This document shows, piece after piece, positions 23,427 through 54,324 of a DNA stretch of 64,000 nt. The stretch comes from Cyclobacteriaceae bacterium (GTDB lineage Bacteria > Bacteroidota > Bacteroidia > Cytophagales > Cyclobacteriaceae). A program made the translations under genes and the position numbers. The DNA lies in the NCBI GenBank assembly GCA_031400595.1, contig JANNQG010000004.1, forward strand, positions 13,985-77,984, in the 5' to 3' direction. Below the pieces are notes generated by a model, which was not told the origin of the DNA, ran no database searches, and was given only the letters and a program-made list of their open reading frames with translations. How positions within the stretch are numbered: the stretch's first letter is position 1; each line of letters begins with the position of its first letter.

Positions 23427-24110
23427 ATGGAAGCAAAGAAAAATCCCAACAAAGATTTAAGCCTTCAACGAAACAAATTTTTCTTAATTGGCTTAACCGT
23501 AAGCATCAGTCTTGCAATAACTGCATTTGAATGGCGGACGGTGAAGACGAAGCCAACTGTCCCGTATTCAAACCCGATTGAAACAGGTACTTTTTTATTT
23601 CCTCCCATTACAACCATCGCTCCACCAGAAATTCCGCAGCCGATCAAAAAATTAGAACCTAAAATTAAATCGGTAACACCTACTGATTTTGTAACACTTG
23701 CAAATGATGAACCTGGTGAAGATCTGATTCCATTGGTCGAAACCGACACTGAGGCTCCTTTATCCCCGGTATTCACTCCCTTCGTTGACGAAGTCGATAC
23801 TGTGTTTGTGATTGTGGAAAAAAAACCCGAGCCTGTTTACGGGTTCGAAAATTTCTACCAACAACTTGCAAAAAACTTAAGATACCCCATTCAAGCAAAG
23901 CGAATGGGCACAGAAGGAAAAGTATTTGTGGAATTCATTGTGAACCGCAACGGTGAGCCTTCTGATTTGAAAGTGATAAGAGGTATTGGTGCTGGCTGCG
24001 ATGAAGAAGCCCTTCGCGTACTCTCTTTGACAAAATGGGAACCAGGCAAACAGCGCGGAAAGCCTGTGCGAGTAAAGATGGCGATGCAACTCAATTTTAA
24101 ATTGAACTAA
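23427..24110 (+). CDS. tonB: Energy transducer TonB
   Basis: N-terminal TM, Pro-rich linker, TonB_C 'LRYPIQAKRMGTEGKVFVEFIV...GCDEEALRV...WEPGKQRGKPV'. Confidence 0.93.
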   Translation: MEAKKNPNKDLSLQRNKFFLIGLTVSISLAITAFEWRTVKTKPTVPYSNPIETGTFLFPPITTIAPPEIPQPIKKLEPKIKSVTPTDFVTLANDEPGEDLIPLVETDTEAPLSPVFTPFVDEVDTVFVIVEKKPEPVYGFENFYQQLAKNLRYPIQAKRMGTEGKVFVEFIVNRNGEPSDLKVIRGIGAGCDEEALRVLSLTKWEPGKQRGKPVRVKMAMQLNFKLN

Positions 24111-26368
24111 ATTTTGATATTCAGCGATGCCGTCATACATCTTCCATAGCCATCAATACCAGAGGCATAAACGCGATAGGCTTTGTCAAAAATATTTTGA
24201 GCGGAAACTTGAACACTGACAAATTTGAACGAGTAACCAGCATACAGATTTACAATATCCCAGGCCGGCATCGCGCCATCAATCAAGCGCACATTGATTC
24301 GCACATCCGACTTATCGCCCGCAGCCAATCGATCTTGTTTTCCGGCCATGGCCCATTCTGTCCGGATCCAAATCCCTGACAAATGGGTATATCGAAATCC
24401 AACTCGACCAAACATTGGAGGAATCCTGCGCATGGGTTCCTTCTTCGTTTCATTTTCGCCATGGGTGTAGGTTATGTTTCCGAAAACAGTCAGTGACTTT
24501 GCAACCATTGCCTCGATATCTGCCTCCACGCCTTTTACCAACGCCTCGCCTACATTTTGCTTTTGATAAACAGTTCGTCCATCAAAAGTGGTAGAACCGT
24601 TGTAGCTAGCCGTTACACGATCAATCATATCAGTCAGCTTTGTTTGGTAGGCAGTGATCGTCCATGAAAGTTTACGACTATTGTACTTGAAACCCGTCTC
24701 TATATTCAGCGAACGCTCTGGAGAAAGGCTGCCGCTCGGAATCTCAAACACATTTGCTTCTAGCGTGCCAAACTTGCTCATGTCATCCACATTGGGGGCG
24801 CGAAAACCTGTATTGACAGTGCCGATAACGCGCCAATTTGTGTTGATCTTATACATAACTCCAGCATTTCCAACCCATGCACTGGGATTGATTTGTTGAT
24901 TACCAAATACATTGTCCAAAACAGAAACCGTCACATTGTTAAATCGGGCTCCTGCCGAAAATTGAAATTTTTTCCAATCCAATTGGTGGTTTGTGAAAAT
25001 GGCAAGATTTGAAATAGTGGAGCCATCGGCATAAGATCCTCTCTGAGACGTCTCGGTATTGGTTGTTGTATTCAATAGGTTAGCCTTGCTATTTACTTTG
25101 TCGGAATAAAATTCAATACCTGATTGGACGTGCCATTTGGCAGTGGGATTTGAATGAACCTCGGCTATTGCTCCCAAGGTATTTACTTCATCTAGCTGCT
25201 TTTTGATTTCAGTTGAATTGTTCTTTTGAGAAATGGTTCCTTCAATAGAACGATTGATAGAGCCCGTCAACCGAAACGACCGAAGCCAAGGGCTATTTGA
25301 CGAAGTCTCCCAACGTAAATAGCTCAGTTGGCGGGTTTGAGGTTCAAACTCAAATAGACTAAACCCGCCTTGAACGACTTGATCATAGCGTGGCACATGA
25401 TTTTGAGTTGTTTGTTGAAAAGCTGCAGTGAGCACTCCTTGCGCACCCGTCCGTAGTAATAATTTGGCATCTCCTGAGCGCTCGTAATAGCGTGTTGGAT
25501 TTAACACGCCCAAGTCACCGCCAGCCACCACATCACCGAAGTTGCGAGCTGAGAAACCACCCAAAAAAGCGATCTGCTTTCCTCTCAACTCAATCTCCGG
25601 TCGAATGCTCTGTTCCATGCCGGCACTCATCCATTTTGTTTGAATACGTCCACCAACTTGCAATCCATTGGAGTGAAAAGAAGGTGTGGCCGAAATAACC
25701 TGCACCACTCCGCCTAGCGCATCACTGCCATACAATACTGATCCACTTCCTCGATTGACTTCTATCCGTTCAATTAATCCGGGATCAATCGTGGAAAGGT
25801 ATTGATTAGGCCCGTAGCGATACGTGGCATTGTTCAACCGGATTCCATCTACTACCAACAGTACCTGATTACCCACAAGGCCTCTAATGATCGGTGAGCC
25901 TCCACCGTGATTTGTTTTTTGAACCCATACGCCTGACTCATTCATCAAGGCCTCTGGCGTTGACCGTGGGGAGCGTTCCGCCAATTGGGTCGCAGAAATG
26001 GAAGACGTAGTTTGAGCCACATCAAAAGACAATCGTTCACTGCGCTGTGCGGTGATCGTAACAGCATTGTTGAGAAGAATAGCCGAAGGATTCAACTCGA
26101 TGGTAGATTCCTTTTCCCTTCGCATGACGTATTCTATGGTCGAATAGCCTATCGCGCTAATGCGAAGACGAATAGAATCTGAAGACAAGTTATCCAAAAC
26201 AAATTTACCTTCCTTGTCGGTAATCGTGCCGAGTGCTGAATTGATAACTGCGACATGAACATCGGCCACTGGTTGCCTTGTTGCTTGATCAATGACAATG
26301 GCCTTGTATTGCGAAAACGCCAGTTGAGTACCCAGCAAAAACAGGATCGTTGAAAAATATTTGATCAT
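24107..26368 (-). CDS. TonB-dependent receptor (non-SusC; N-terminal carboxypeptidase-like domain, plug, barrel)
   Basis: 'GSPIIRGLVGNQVLLVVDGIRLNN', 'IERIEVNRGSGSVLYGSDALGGV', 'TGFRAPN', 'LSPERS', 'NIFDKAY'. Confidence 0.92.
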   Translation of the reverse strand: MIKYFSTILFLLGTQLAFSQYKAIVIDQATRQPVADVHVAVINSALGTITDKEGKFVLDNLSSDSIRLRISAIGYSTIEYVMRREKESTIELNPSAILLNNAVTITAQRSERLSFDVAQTTSSISATQLAERSPRSTPEALMNESGVWVQKTNHGGGSPIIRGLVGNQVLLVVDGIRLNNATYRYGPNQYLSTIDPGLIERIEVNRGSGSVLYGSDALGGVVQVISATPSFHSNGLQVGGRIQTKWMSAGMEQSIRPEIELRGKQIAFLGGFSARNFGDVVAGGDLGVLNPTRYYERSGDAKLLLRTGAQGVLTAAFQQTTQNHVPRYDQVVQGGFSLFEFEPQTRQLSYLRWETSSNSPWLRSFRLTGSINRSIEGTISQKNNSTEIKKQLDEVNTLGAIAEVHSNPTAKWHVQSGIEFYSDKVNSKANLLNTTTNTETSQRGSYADGSTISNLAIFTNHQLDWKKFQFSAGARFNNVTVSVLDNVFGNQQINPSAWVGNAGVMYKINTNWRVIGTVNTGFRAPNVDDMSKFGTLEANVFEIPSGSLSPERSLNIETGFKYNSRKLSWTITAYQTKLTDMIDRVTASYNGSTTFDGRTVYQKQNVGEALVKGVEADIEAMVAKSLTVFGNITYTHGENETKKEPMRRIPPMFGRVGFRYTHLSGIWIRTEWAMAGKQDRLAAGDKSDVRINVRLIDGAMPAWDIVNLYAGYSFKFVSVQVSAQNIFDKAYRVYASGIDGYGRCMTASLNIKI

Positions 26369-26377
26369 ACTGGGGAC

Positions 26378-26437
26378 GATTCAAAGTTCAAGATTCAAGA
26401 TTGTAAAAACCAAATTTTGAATTTTGAATCTTGAATT
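26378..26437. repeat. Heptamer-built imperfect hairpin (ATTCAAA/GTTCAAG/ATTCAAG vs TTGAATT/TTGAATC/TTGAATT)
   Basis: Two inverted 7-bp-phased arms between the phosphoesterase gene and the TBDR. Confidence 0.7.
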
Positions 26438-26438
26438 C

Positions 26439-53608: not shown

Positions 53609-53672
53609 AGCTTTTCCATTTTAAAACAAAGAATGGGAGAATGTTCGTCATATCCTCGAAGAGGCATCTTAA

Positions 53673-53688
53673 TTAACTATTTAGTAAT
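53673..53688 (+). promoter_or_regulatory. Motif TTAACTATTTAGTAAT in the divergent phnX/phnZ promoter region
   Basis: 49 nt upstream of a -7-like TACCTTCG (53722-29). Confidence 0.5.
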
Positions 53689-53748
53689 GTCATCTCAGAT
53701 CCGCCAAGTAATTATCTTGAGTACCTTCGAAGTAATAAAAATAAGAAT

Positions 53749-54324
53749 ATGAAAAGTGAAGCGATTGTAAAAGAGGTTTTTGAATTGTACGATAGATACG
53801 GAAACGAAGACTACATCGGTGAACCTGTTTCTCAAATCGAACACATGTCACAGGCGGCAGCTTTAGCGATACGGGAGGGATACGATGACGAGGTTATTTT
53901 GGCAGCATTCTTTCATGATATCGGGCATATTTGTGTAAGTCGAAACAAAGAGAATGACATGGGCGGCTTCGGAACAAAAAGCCACGAAAAAATAGGGGCT
54001 GATTTTTTGCGCGAGAAAGGATTTTCTGAGCGTATCGCGAAATTGGTTGAAAATCACGTACAAGCAAAGAGATATTTAACCTTCAAGCAACCGGACTACT
54101 TCTTAAACCTTTCAGAGGCCAGTAAGAAAACGCTGGAGTTACAGGGGGGCGTGATGAGTGAGAATGAAGCGGTTGCATTCGAAAAAGATCCACTCTTCGA
54201 TACCAGCATAAAAATGAGATACTGGGATGAGCAAGCGAAAGAATTAAATACCCCGCTGATCAACCTGGATAAAATAAAAGCCAGAGCACTTCATGCTCTG
54301 GCTTTTTCAACAAACTATTATTAG
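53749..54324 (+). CDS. phnZ: HD-domain di-iron C-P-cleaving oxygenase (PhnZ/TmpB family)
   Basis: 'YIGEPVSQIEHMSQAA', 'AAFFHDIGH', 'HEKIGADFL', 'ENHVQAKRYL', 'LSEASKKTLELQGG', 'RYWDEQAK'. Confidence 0.92.
   Translation: MKSEAIVKEVFELYDRYGNEDYIGEPVSQIEHMSQAAALAIREGYDDEVILAAFFHDIGHICVSRNKENDMGGFGTKSHEKIGADFLREKGFSERIAKLVENHVQAKRYLTFKQPDYFLNLSEASKKTLELQGGVMSENEAVAFEKDPLFDTSIKMRYWDEQAKELNTPLINLDKIKARALHALAFSTNYY

Follow-up and report, generated by a model that had tools for sequence, protein, structure and literature searches.

The question raised by a locus of about 30 kb in a Cyclobacteriaceae genome (24107-54324) is whether its two SusC/SusD outer-membrane pairs, six exported phosphoesterases and phosphonate-associated enzymes work as one phosphonolipid utilisation system, as an earlier sequence-only reading had proposed, or are an assembly of separable parts. 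The locus lies in a window of 64,000 nucleotides (the whole stretch of DNA that was analysed, positions 13985-77984 of contig JANNQG010000004.1, C28:13985-77984, in the 4.15-Mb, 29-contig assembly GCA_031400595.1), and the nearest named relatives are metagenome-assembled genomes (MAGs) labelled Cytophagales, Cyclobacteriaceae and Flammeovirgaceae. The locus is probably a mosaic in which three modules, each of them found apart from the others elsewhere, are gathered at a phosphorus-acquisition hot spot: a TonB receptor with a phosphoesterase (module 1, 24107-29231), a phosphoinositide block (module 2, 29351-38242) and an aminophosphonate block (module 3, 38612-54324). This degree of confidence is for the entire explanation, namely the three modules together with their proposed substrates, steps and regulation; gene identities, synteny, the fold of the DUF5690 protein and motif conservation were read directly, and substrates, compartments, order of steps and regulation are inferred.

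Gene content of the two SusC/SusD blocks

A gene list for the locus was drawn up from an open reading frame (ORF) listing and Pfam/NCBIfam scans, and every gene that the sequence-only reading had named was recovered with strong family matches. Both SusC/SusD pairs are present and are flanked, as claimed, by six exported esterases and not by glycoside hydrolases, of which there are none among the locus genes. The esterases are two propeller-phosphoesterase (PropPE) lipoproteins (PF04185, 28.6 bits for PropPE1 and 26.4 bits for PropPE2, cut-off 23), an enzyme like phosphatidylinositol-specific phospholipase C (PI-PLC), a fusion of a phospholipase C (PLC)-like domain to PhoA, and two purple acid phosphatases (PAPs), the last four identified through PF16670, PF00245 and PF00149. 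The three phosphonate-associated enzymes (TIGR03364 oxidase, PhnX-like and PhnZ) were likewise found. The inventory fell short in leaving a non-SusC TonB receptor at the start of the span (24107-26368) undescribed and in missing an exported 193-aa ORF (52290-52871), and the DUF5690 membrane protein, correctly recognised, has its place inside the phosphonate block, where its gene overlaps translationally with that of the PHP phosphatase. Two minus-strand stretches make up the left part of the span, one covering 26368-24107 (the TonB receptor) and the other 46465-26439 (SusC1128 to PropPE1). The features of modules 2 and 3 are as follows.

29351-31171, minus strand: PLC-like/PhoA fusion of 606 aa, an 'AHNDY' N-terminal domain followed by PhoA (PF00245, E 1.7e-42), with a signal peptidase I (SPI) signal peptide
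31168-32109, minus strand: ACP5/TRAP-type PAP (PF00149), SPI signal peptide, 4-nt overlap with the downstream gene
32168-33262, minus strand: Ca-dependent PI-PLC (PF16670, E 9e-114 across the full profile), SPI signal peptide
33390-38242, minus strand: PusCD1-like pair, SusC1022 (35174-38242) and SusD580 (33390-35132); TIGR04056 760 bits
38612-41356, minus strand: PropPE2, propeller plus PF04185 lipoprotein (lipobox FLISC), 44% identical to PropPE1
41468-46465, minus strand: SusC1128 (43079-46465) and SusD505 (41468-42985); TIGR04056 645 bits, PF12771 E 2e-100
46687-47313, plus strand: XRE helix-turn-helix and cupin regulator, divergent from SusC1128
47339-48640, minus strand: plant-type PAP (PAP433; Pur_ac_phosph_N and Metallophos), SPI signal peptide
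48874-50025, plus strand: PbfD-type FAD amine oxidase, cytoplasmic (TIGR03364 347.6 bits, cut-off 285.1)
50160-51008, plus strand: PHP/HisJ-family phosphatase (TIGR01856 144 bits), no signal peptide, overlapping the DUF5690 start by 4 nt
51005-52300, plus strand: DUF5690 inner-membrane permease, predicted major facilitator superfamily (MFS) (PF18943 E 1.8e-164)
52290-52871, minus strand: orf193, exported 193-aa protein with signal peptide, conserved
52916-53608, minus strand: PhnX-like HAD hydrolase, putative phosphonoacetaldehyde-type C-P hydrolase (TIGR03351 214.1 bits, cut-off 218.9)
53749-54324, plus strand: PhnZ-type HD-domain oxygenase (TIGR03276 214.7 bits, cut-off 214.6)

Conservation and linkage across Bacteroidota

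Linkage was examined from both ends. DUF5690 is found in 34 of 151 sampled genomes of the window's family, and the window proteins were compared by tblastn with ±20 kb around DUF5690 in 30 loci. Within this distance lie a TIGR03364 oxidase in 18 loci, PhnX-like in 16, the XRE-cupin regulator in 15, a SusC1128-type pair (at least 45% identity) in 14, PhnZ in 12, PHP in 12 and orf193 in five. The SusC1128-type pairs beside DUF5690 come from different genera, and all four linked oxidases that were tested from other loci score above the TIGR03364 cut-off, even at an identity of only 28-58% to that of the window. For the reverse test, an alignment of SusD505 orthologues yielded 80 named loci from species-representative genomes (Chitinophagaceae, Cyclobacteriaceae, Saprospiraceae, Lewinellaceae, Roseivirgaceae, Cytophagaceae, Flavobacteriaceae and Prolixibacteraceae), 43 of them with full flanks. 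At least one of DUF5690, PhnX-like, PhnZ and PbfA accompanies SusD505 in 23 of these 43, and at least two do so in 20; XRE-cupin homologues (28-73% identity to that of the window over both surveys) occur in 17. PbfA, an ammonia-lyase that acts on (R)-1-hydroxy-2-aminoethylphosphonate (617 bits, cut-off 525), was found in 12 SusD505-type loci. Orthologues of orf193 stand between DUF5690 and PhnX-like in at least six further loci (G003, G145, G036, G107, G055 and L092). In Chitinophagales, loci L095, L103 and L117 carry co-directional runs of SusC-SusD-PropPE2-(TonB receptor)-PhnZ-PhnX-like-DUF5690-oxidase, and L097 has the beginning of such a run before its contig ends.

In a maximum-likelihood tree of 79 SusD505-type proteins, the window falls in a well-supported clade of 30 rows, comprising 17 phosphonate-linked loci, five with phosphorus esterases only, seven with short flanks and one with none of these genes, and loci without relevant genes cluster elsewhere (0 of 500 shuffles as low). 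Module 3 is a conserved unit across Bacteroidota: SusC1128/SusD505 is linked to DUF5690, the PbfD-type oxidase, PhnX-like and PhnZ in many families of the phylum, and the association of exported phosphoesterases with such a SusCD pair, an element of the sequence-only reading, finds support in Chitinophagales, where PF04185 propeller phosphoesterases are embedded in the co-directional SusCD-phosphonate runs. Three contigs among the SusD505-type loci (L121, L128 and L130), with SusC/SusD and DUF5690 clusters, come from MAGs labelled 'uncultured Limnohabitans sp.' (Comamonadaceae); they nest within Algoriphagus/Spirosoma sequences in the SusD tree and are probably mis-binned Bacteroidota.

The phosphoinositide block behaves differently. 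None of the 30 DUF5690 loci has PI-PLC, the ACP5-like PAP or SusC1022/SusD580 within 20 kb of that gene, so that the single 30-kb assembly line that had been envisaged comes apart at this block; lack of linkage in relatives was among the outcomes that the sequence-only reading had named as refuting it, and for this block that outcome is observed. PF16670 occurs in 24 of the 151 family genomes; eight other sampled genomes have both PI-PLC and DUF5690, always on separate contigs or with no less than 1 Mb between them. Both same-genus genomes are without PI-PLC. The juxtaposition of modules 2 and 3 is lineage-specific, since module 2 is never near DUF5690 in those loci and the eight genomes keep the two apart. 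One same-genus genome, G146, shares the left (ECF sigma-TonB) and right (Kelch-DUF4270) flanks of the window as well as the catabolic block, with a SusCD pair of another type and without PI-PLC, PropPE2 or PAP433, and the closest named relative (L111) has yet another arrangement between the same flanks. Such differing content between constant flanks points to this site as a hot spot at which phosphorus modules are stacked.

The probable phosphoinositide block

Low-phosphate-induced PusCD clusters were defined in Flavobacterium by Lidbury et al. (PMC8115612), and Pus1 is Pho-induced in F. johnsoniae (PMC8115612). In the study of Connolly et al. (bioRxiv 10.64898/2026.09.03.749221), Pus1 comprises PusCD1, the PI-PLC Fjoh_4172 and the calcineurin-like Fjoh_4173, and Pus2 comprises PusCD2 and PhoA1, which has an extra PLC/glycerophosphodiester phosphodiesterase (GDPD)-like domain. 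Both systems are needed for growth on phosphatidylinositol and glycerophosphoinositol, their enzymes are apparently periplasmic, and PusD1 binds inositol phosphate through D84, W85, D87, R312, R321, T323 and Y307 (bioRxiv 10.64898/2026.09.03.749221).

Module 2 was compared with these systems by architecture and by the published residue motif. Like Pus1 and Pus2, it has, next to its SusCD pair, a PF16670 PI-PLC, a phosphoesterase of calcineurin fold and a PhoA that bears an extra PLC/GDPD-like domain; the enzymes carry SPI signal peptides and there are no CAZymes. The parts are those of Fjoh_4168-4173 and Fjoh_3249-3251, the PhoA fusion having the architecture of Fjoh_3249 and the PAP the position of Fjoh_4173, with the order SusC-SusD-PI-PLC-PAP on a single strand. 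SusD580 has D83-W84-F85-D86, a DWxD that would correspond to the PusD1 ligand position (D84/W85/D87), within a GGxDW[FY]DGGKF stretch that is kept in seven orthologues, and its R307-G-T309 triplet resembles PusD1 R321/T323, a comparison made through the published residues. The closest solved structure to the PhoA fusion is TAB5 alkaline phosphatase (2w5v, E 4e-71), and the ACP5-like PAP matches mammalian PAP structures over its full length (1qfc, E 9e-36). Orthologues of SusC1022 and SusD580 (65-71% and 74-77% identity) adjoin PI-PLC in seven of 18 fetched PI-PLC loci. In contrast to F. johnsoniae, the window places the Pus1 and Pus2 enzyme sets behind a single SusCD, SusC1022/SusD580 has no adjacent ECF sigma/anti-sigma pair, and the N-terminal domain of the PhoA fusion falls short of the PF13653 model. 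An assignment of that domain to PF13653/GDPD was considered and rejected, the GDPD match being weak (E 0.23).

Because all the enzyme types stand behind a SusCD pair, the DWxD motif is present and orthologous SusCD and PI-PLC genes are joined in relatives, module 2 is, as judged by gene content and motifs, a member of the characterised Pus1/Pus2 kind. SusC1022/SusD580 would take inositol-phosphate headgroups such as glycerophosphoinositol and inositol phosphate across the outer membrane, and the periplasmic PI-PLC, ACP5-like PAP and PLC-like/PhoA fusion would then liberate phosphate by hydrolysing diester and monoester bonds.

The probable aminophosphonate block

Zangelmi et al. 2023 (PMC10590968) described a biochemically characterised hydrolytic route from 2-aminoethylphosphonate (AEP) that uses PbfD and PhnX without PhnW. 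In it, phosphonoacetaldehyde is formed from N-methyl-AEP and from AEP by PbfD enzymes, and the TIGR03364 family includes the characterised PbfD1 (PMC10590968). The window likewise has a TIGR03364 FAD oxidase beside a HAD hydrolase of the phosphonatase type, and its cluster is without phnW. It differs from the described pathway, known from Proteobacteria and the PVC group, in belonging to Bacteroidota, in having a hydrolase of the PhnX-like TIGR03351 clade, and in coupling the enzymes to a TonB-dependent SusCD importer and DUF5690, not to ABC (ATP-binding cassette) or AepP transporters. The PhnX-like protein has a DLAGT nucleophile motif at residues 8-12 and a cap lysine (M44...K48), as read in the sequence, in line with the DxAGT and cap Schiff-base lysine motifs of the TIGRFAM/PhnX literature.

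PhnY*/PhnZ is the known oxidative AEP pathway. As expected of that pathway, the HD-domain oxygenase of the window has a complete set of six His/Asp iron ligands (H32, H56, D57, H79, H103 and D160) and the Y-x-x-E substrate motif (Y22/E25). The window departs from the pathway in having no linked 2-oxoglutarate hydroxylase, and in relatives the PbfA lyase (PbfA work: PMC8154272) either replaces PhnZ or accompanies it. The source genome has two PhyH-family genes, both on other contigs and among unrelated genes, and no linked PhnY* hydroxylase or PbfA was detected in it. The lack of a linked PhnY* hydroxylase implies that (R)-1-hydroxy-AEP is supplied pre-formed.

The oxidase, PHP, PhnX-like and PhnZ proteins have no signal peptide, and SPI signal peptides are found in PI-PLC, both PAPs, the PhoA fusion and orf193. 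SusD505 and SusD580 both have a lipobox followed by acidic residues (CDEGFE in SusD505). In other taxa, SusD505-type genes are followed by PAP-like genes of distant relationship (22-27% identity); PAP433 is absent from the same-genus genome G146. An AlphaFold2 (AF2) model of orf193 (mean predicted local distance difference test, pLDDT, 85) has a beta-rich domain and two long helices; the protein gave no Pfam, NCBIfam or fold match. Two copies of AATTTTCAAATCTTCAAATTG, which are short dispersed repeats, lie between the oxidase and PHP genes (50026-50159), and a repeat core, TTCAAATCTTCAAAT, has 13 occurrences genome-wide.

DUF5690 as a predicted carrier

An AF2 model of DUF5690 built from 22 sequences (pLDDT 86, predicted template modelling score 0.86) has twelve long helices. 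Its best Foldseek matches are G6PT1/SLC37A4, SLC37A2 and GlpT, with template modelling (TM) scores of 0.62-0.72 and E about 1e-7 (G6PT1, E 1.7e-7 and TM 0.67-0.72; GlpT 1pw4, TM 0.65). DUF5690 is thus a predicted MFS carrier whose modelled fold is nearest to organophosphate:phosphate antiporters, and this fold favours the idea of import advanced in the sequence-only reading. No Pfam match other than PF18943 and no PDB match by sequence or profile was obtained, and hhalign against a GlpT-like MFS protein returned a probability of 0.8%; the labels 'MFS family permease' and 'sugar phosphate permease' are already given to homologues by some sources. The AEP transporters AepXVW, AepP and AepSTU were described by Murphy et al. 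2021 (PMC8316502). Like AepP, DUF5690 is a predicted MFS carrier of GlpT-like fold that is encoded beside AEP catabolic genes (PMC8316502), but it has no detectable GlpT-type sequence similarity and forms a separate Pfam family without a characterised member. An identification of DUF5690 as AepP was therefore rejected, since AepP is a GlpT-type MFS protein and the fold alone matches.

PropPE proteins as predicted phosphoesterases, and accessory enzymes

PropPE1 is encoded in module 1 and PropPE2 in module 3. A profile of 12 PropPE homologues (A4) matches Francisella AcpA (2d1g, E 2e-9), and both window proteins contain KENRTYD, NDHGA, ADNDLA and EDDxQGGxDHIDAHRS, of which ENRTYD and DDxQGGxDHxDxHRS are invariant across the 12. 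PropPE1 and PropPE2 are accordingly predicted, on these motifs, to be phosphoesterases of the AcpA/phospholipase C family. The possibility that the two paralogues have divergent active sites was rejected, their main motifs being identical. PropPE2 orthologues (55-64% identity) follow SusD505-type genes in L095, L097, L103, L105, L106 and L117. A third, distant propeller/phosphoesterase paralogue (27% identity) lies elsewhere in the genome, at C18:26716-28941.

The accessory genes beside the SusD505 clade vary by locus and include PropPE (PF04185), a 358-aa alkaline-phosphatase-superfamily protein (AP358; 26 loci), an NPP plus PA14 protein (11 loci), a protein of 434 aa that weakly matches metallo-beta-lactamases (also 11 loci) and PAP-like metallophosphoesterases. 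These folds are all known to include diesterases or phosphonate-monoesterases. Chemically, an AEP ester, R-O-P(O)(O-)-CH2CH2NH3+, is a phosphonate monoester from which one cut of the PLC/diesterase type would yield free AEP, which fits the PLC idea of the sequence-only reading better than a monoesterase step does. A PlcP-like metallophosphoesterase and a glycosyltransferase lie beside the aminophosphonate SusCD in L098, L119, L139, L149 and L167, and a PlcP-like gene only in L118; this pairing of PlcP with a glycosyltransferase is typical of phosphate-starvation lipid remodelling.

Proposed pathway

In the first step proposed for module 3, SusC1128/SusD505 would import compounds bearing a 2-aminoethyl-phosph(on)ate group, the candidate cargoes being AEP and hydroxy-AEP, either free or esterified to glycerol, ceramide or glycans. 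The exported PropPE2 and PAP433, which have diesterase-capable folds, would release the headgroup, either periplasmically or on the outside of the cell, and DUF5690 would carry it into the cytoplasm. There, the PbfD-type oxidase would turn AEP or N-methyl-AEP into phosphonoacetaldehyde, the PhnX-like hydrolase would cleave its C-P bond, PhnZ would oxidatively cleave pre-formed 1-hydroxy-AEP, and the PHP enzyme would dephosphorylate similar-looking phosphate esters, e.g. phosphoethanolamine. As a core, the PHP-DUF5690 pair persists most, standing alone without other phosphonate genes in five of the 12 loci that have it, which suggests import and cytoplasmic hydrolysis of an amino-alcohol phosphate, e.g. 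phosphoethanolamine.

The most specific form of this proposal is held tentatively, as possible rather than probable: the SusD505 clade may be a phylum-wide TonB-dependent importer of the 2-aminoethyl-phosph(on)ate headgroup, served by PropPE proteins as a new class of exported phosphonate-ester hydrolases that act like phospholipase C on phosphonolipids or AEP-decorated glycans, with DUF5690 as a new MFS family importing AEP, hydroxy-AEP and phosphoethanolamine, the HisJ-like PHP as a cytoplasmic phosphoethanolamine phosphatase and orf193 as a hitherto unrecognised periplasmic partner. If true, this would be the first outer-membrane, energy-dependent route of phosphonate acquisition.

Several observations weigh against the explanation by three modules and the pathway as a whole. 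PhnX-like scores just under, and PhnZ barely over, the curated cut-offs; the window has no PhnY*-type 2-oxoglutarate hydroxylase; SusD505 is without any tested ligand motif, and a 2026 preprint expects a binding mode unlike that of PusD1 (bioRxiv 10.64898/2026.09.03.749221). The PropPE orthologue N-termini that were examined (including L095, L097, L103 and L117) lack a lipobox, which makes the compartment of PropPE uncertain. Loci L122, L126, L138 and L144 adjoin ethanolamine-catabolic genes and not C-P cleavage genes, so that the specificity of the SusD505 clade may exceed phosphonates and the common theme of its loci may be the aminoethyl-phosph(on)ate headgroup. The genes concerned are ethanolamine-permease-like, glutamine-synthetase-like, Fe-alcohol dehydrogenase and aldehyde dehydrogenase genes, and the hosts of these ethanolamine-type loci are Cyclobacterium xiamenense, Arenibacter sp. 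and uncultured Flavobacteriaceae. Finally, the repeat shared by the two SusC promoters (see below) precedes genes that do not look phosphorus-related (transketolase, OsmC-like and YceI-like) and is present in just two of six PlcP promoters.

Promoter repeats and regulation

Both SusC promoters share a TAAC direct repeat phased at 11 bp, at about -108 to -125, in the following forms.

38350-38380, minus strand: TAAC-N7-TAAC-N7-TAAC, direct repeats in phase, placed 104-125 nt upstream of SusC1022
46558-46573, minus strand: TTAAC-N6-TTAAC direct repeat, 109 nt upstream of SusC1128

Exact TAAC-N7-TAAC occurs in 26 of 2041 upstream regions of the source genome, two of which are those of the two SusC genes, and exact TTAAC-N6-TTAAC is intergenic at 13 of its 16 sites genome-wide. 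When one mismatch is allowed, the latter precedes 23 of 68 SusC1128-type genes of other taxa (34%, vs 2.7% in shuffles), and yTAAC-N6-yTAAC stands upstream of PusC1-like genes in five of seven relatives. A TTAAC-N6-TTAAT site lies 31 nt upstream of orf193, and other targets of the repeat include a PiT-like transporter and TonB receptors. Direct repeats of 11-bp phasing are typical of OmpR/PhoB-type regulators. The presence of the same phased repeat at both SusC promoters suggests a single response-regulator-type control, which would probably be Pho; assignment of the repeat to PhoB is a guess in view of its non-phosphorus targets and its presence in two of six PlcP promoters, and no paper defining a Bacteroidota Pho box was found in the literature. 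For the same reasons the repeat was rejected as a proven Pho box and kept as a candidate operator common to the two promoters. Module 3 would in addition be controlled in a substrate-specific manner by the XRE-cupin protein; inspection of three divergent intergenic regions revealed no convincing operator for it. A hairpin and T-run, read by eye, follow both SusD genes, and counts from a generic terminator/promoter scan were not above those of shuffles.

Two TTAAC-N6-TTAAC sites also occur near C3:202769-213862 of the source genome, where an AP358 homologue (53% identity) and an ethanolamine-permease-like gene are found; this is a possible second phosphorus locus.

Alternative explanations

That the whole 30 kb is one assembly line, organised like a polysaccharide utilisation locus, with both SusCD pairs and all six esterases feeding DUF5690 and the C-P block for the use of phosphonolipids, draws on the contiguity of the parts, which have no unrelated gene between them, on the TAAC repeat common to both SusC promoters, and on two Cyclobacteriaceae MAGs (L125 and L129) in which PI-PLC lies beside an XRE-cupin gene, a SusD505-type pair and PropPE. 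The linkage data speak against it: neither PI-PLC, the ACP5-like PAP nor SusC1022/SusD580 accompanies DUF5690 within 20 kb in any of the 30 loci, in each of the eight other genomes that possess both, the genes are split between contigs or separated by 1 Mb or more, and PI-PLC is missing from the same-genus genomes. The PI-PLC block, moreover, has its own well-conserved SusCD with a DWxD motif like the inositol-binding one of PusD1 and is of a type with a characterised phosphoinositide function, and the single line is considered very improbable. A second explanation confines itself to uptake, with SusC1128/SusD505 scavenging small free molecules (AEP, hydroxy-AEP and phosphoethanolamine) present at low concentration and the esterases being general Pho-regulon phosphatases that leave phosphonate esters untouched, so that uptake is uncoupled from any processing of lipids or glycans. 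PusCD1 was found with a small monoester, IP1, bound and not a lipid (bioRxiv 10.64898/2026.09.03.749221), the esterase set varies by locus as would be expected of interchangeable general enzymes, and G146 has the catabolic block with another SusCD type and without PAP433 or PropPE2. Against this stand the PropPE2 orthologues embedded between SusD and PhnZ in co-directional runs, the fact that every recurrent accessory fold includes known diesterases or phosphonate-monoesterases, and the inability of exported monoesterases alone to act on AEP esters; scavenging of free molecules is regarded as unlikely.

It is rather unlikely, although conceivable, that the SusD505 clade targets ethanolamine-type headgroups in general (glycerophosphoethanolamine and phosphoethanolamine), possibly as a source of both nitrogen and phosphorus, with phosphonate catabolism as one downstream option. 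The ethanolamine-catabolic genes that flank SusCD in L122, L126, L138 and L144 agree with such a role, as does the occurrence of PHP-DUF5690 alone, without C-P enzymes, in five genomes, and HisJ-family PHP proteins act on an amino-alcohol phosphate, histidinol phosphate. Phosphonate genes are nevertheless by far the commonest partners, in 37 of 79 tree rows vs four with ethanolamine genes, and F. johnsoniae grows on glycerophosphoethanolamine via general phosphatases without PusCD1/2 (bioRxiv 10.64898/2026.09.03.749221). The mosaic of three modules, with module 3 directed at aminophosphonates, is the explanation retained here.

Module 1 and flanking features

The remaining features lie at the left of the locus.

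22469-24110, plus strand: extracytoplasmic function (ECF) sigma factor (22469-23029), small membrane ORF and TonB paralogue (23427-24110), a conserved left flank (Pfam Sigma70_r2/r4 and TonB_C)
24107-26368, minus strand: module 1a, non-SusC TonB-dependent receptor of 753 aa (TBDT753; CarboxypepD_reg, Plug and barrel)
26439-29231, minus strand: module 1b, PropPE1, YVTN beta-propeller and C-terminal AcpA/PLC-family domain (PF04185; lipobox LFISC)

TBDT753 homologues (35-44% identity) adjoin PropPE genes in G036, L095, L103, L115, L117 and L129, and the pair with PropPE1 forms its own small module in G036, L103, L115 and L129. Module 1 is a recurrent pair of TonB receptor and PropPE. A palindromic stretch, TTCAAGATTCAAGAT, separates the receptor from PropPE1 (26369-26438). 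The ECF-TonB flank recurs in the same-genus genome G146 (81%/46% identity), in L111 (95%/63%) and in L104 (75%/42%), and on this association it possibly supplies energy or regulation to the locus. Between the sigma factor and the TonB paralogue, at 23030-23426, lies a small single-pass membrane protein ORF (MKKIVRVFVFFLLIALVIV...), which may be an anti-sigma factor.

Relation to previous work and significance

The sequence-only reading had presented the locus as an undescribed system, and on this point it does not stand. The PI-PLC block matches Pus1/Pus2 of F. johnsoniae (bioRxiv 10.64898/2026.09.03.749221), and Flavobacterium PusCD clusters with phnX, oxidoreductase (dao) and aminotransferase-like (dgdA-like) genes have already been reported as low-Pi responsive (bioRxiv 10.1101/719427; PMC8115612), with pusD4/5/6 co-localised with phosphonatases, monoesterases and diesterases (bioRxiv 10.1101/719427; repeated in PMC8115612); clusters of this phnX/oxidoreductase type were noted again in 2026. 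Like the PusCD4/5/6 clusters (PMC8115612 Fig. 6), the window joins SusCD to a PhnX-type hydrolase, an FAD oxidoreductase, exported esterases and an inner-membrane organophosphorus transporter; unlike them, it adds PhnZ, the PHP phosphatase, orf193, PF04185 propeller lipoproteins and the XRE-cupin regulator. The PusCD4/5/6 clusters are listed in print but not dissected, and are likened to the window by gene content. Full-text literature searches revealed no publication in which a phosphonate-linked SusCD is characterised or DUF5690 is mentioned in such a setting. The window locus is a well-furnished example of a noted, uncharacterised kind of cluster, set in a lineage-specific manner beside a Pus1/2-type block, and it involves no new principle beyond the proposals of the Lidbury group.

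What the locus offers is a compact candidate set, namely SusD505, the PropPE and PAP esterases, DUF5690, PHP and orf193, and an indication that phosphoinositide and aminophosphonate systems are separable modules which can be stacked at one genomic hot spot. To our knowledge, Bacteroidota largely lack the ABC transporters used by other bacteria for phosphate and phosphonates. If SusCD pairs are the route by which Bacteroidota acquire aminophosphonates, such importers would handle a considerable share of the phosphonate that is turned over in soil, freshwater and the sea.

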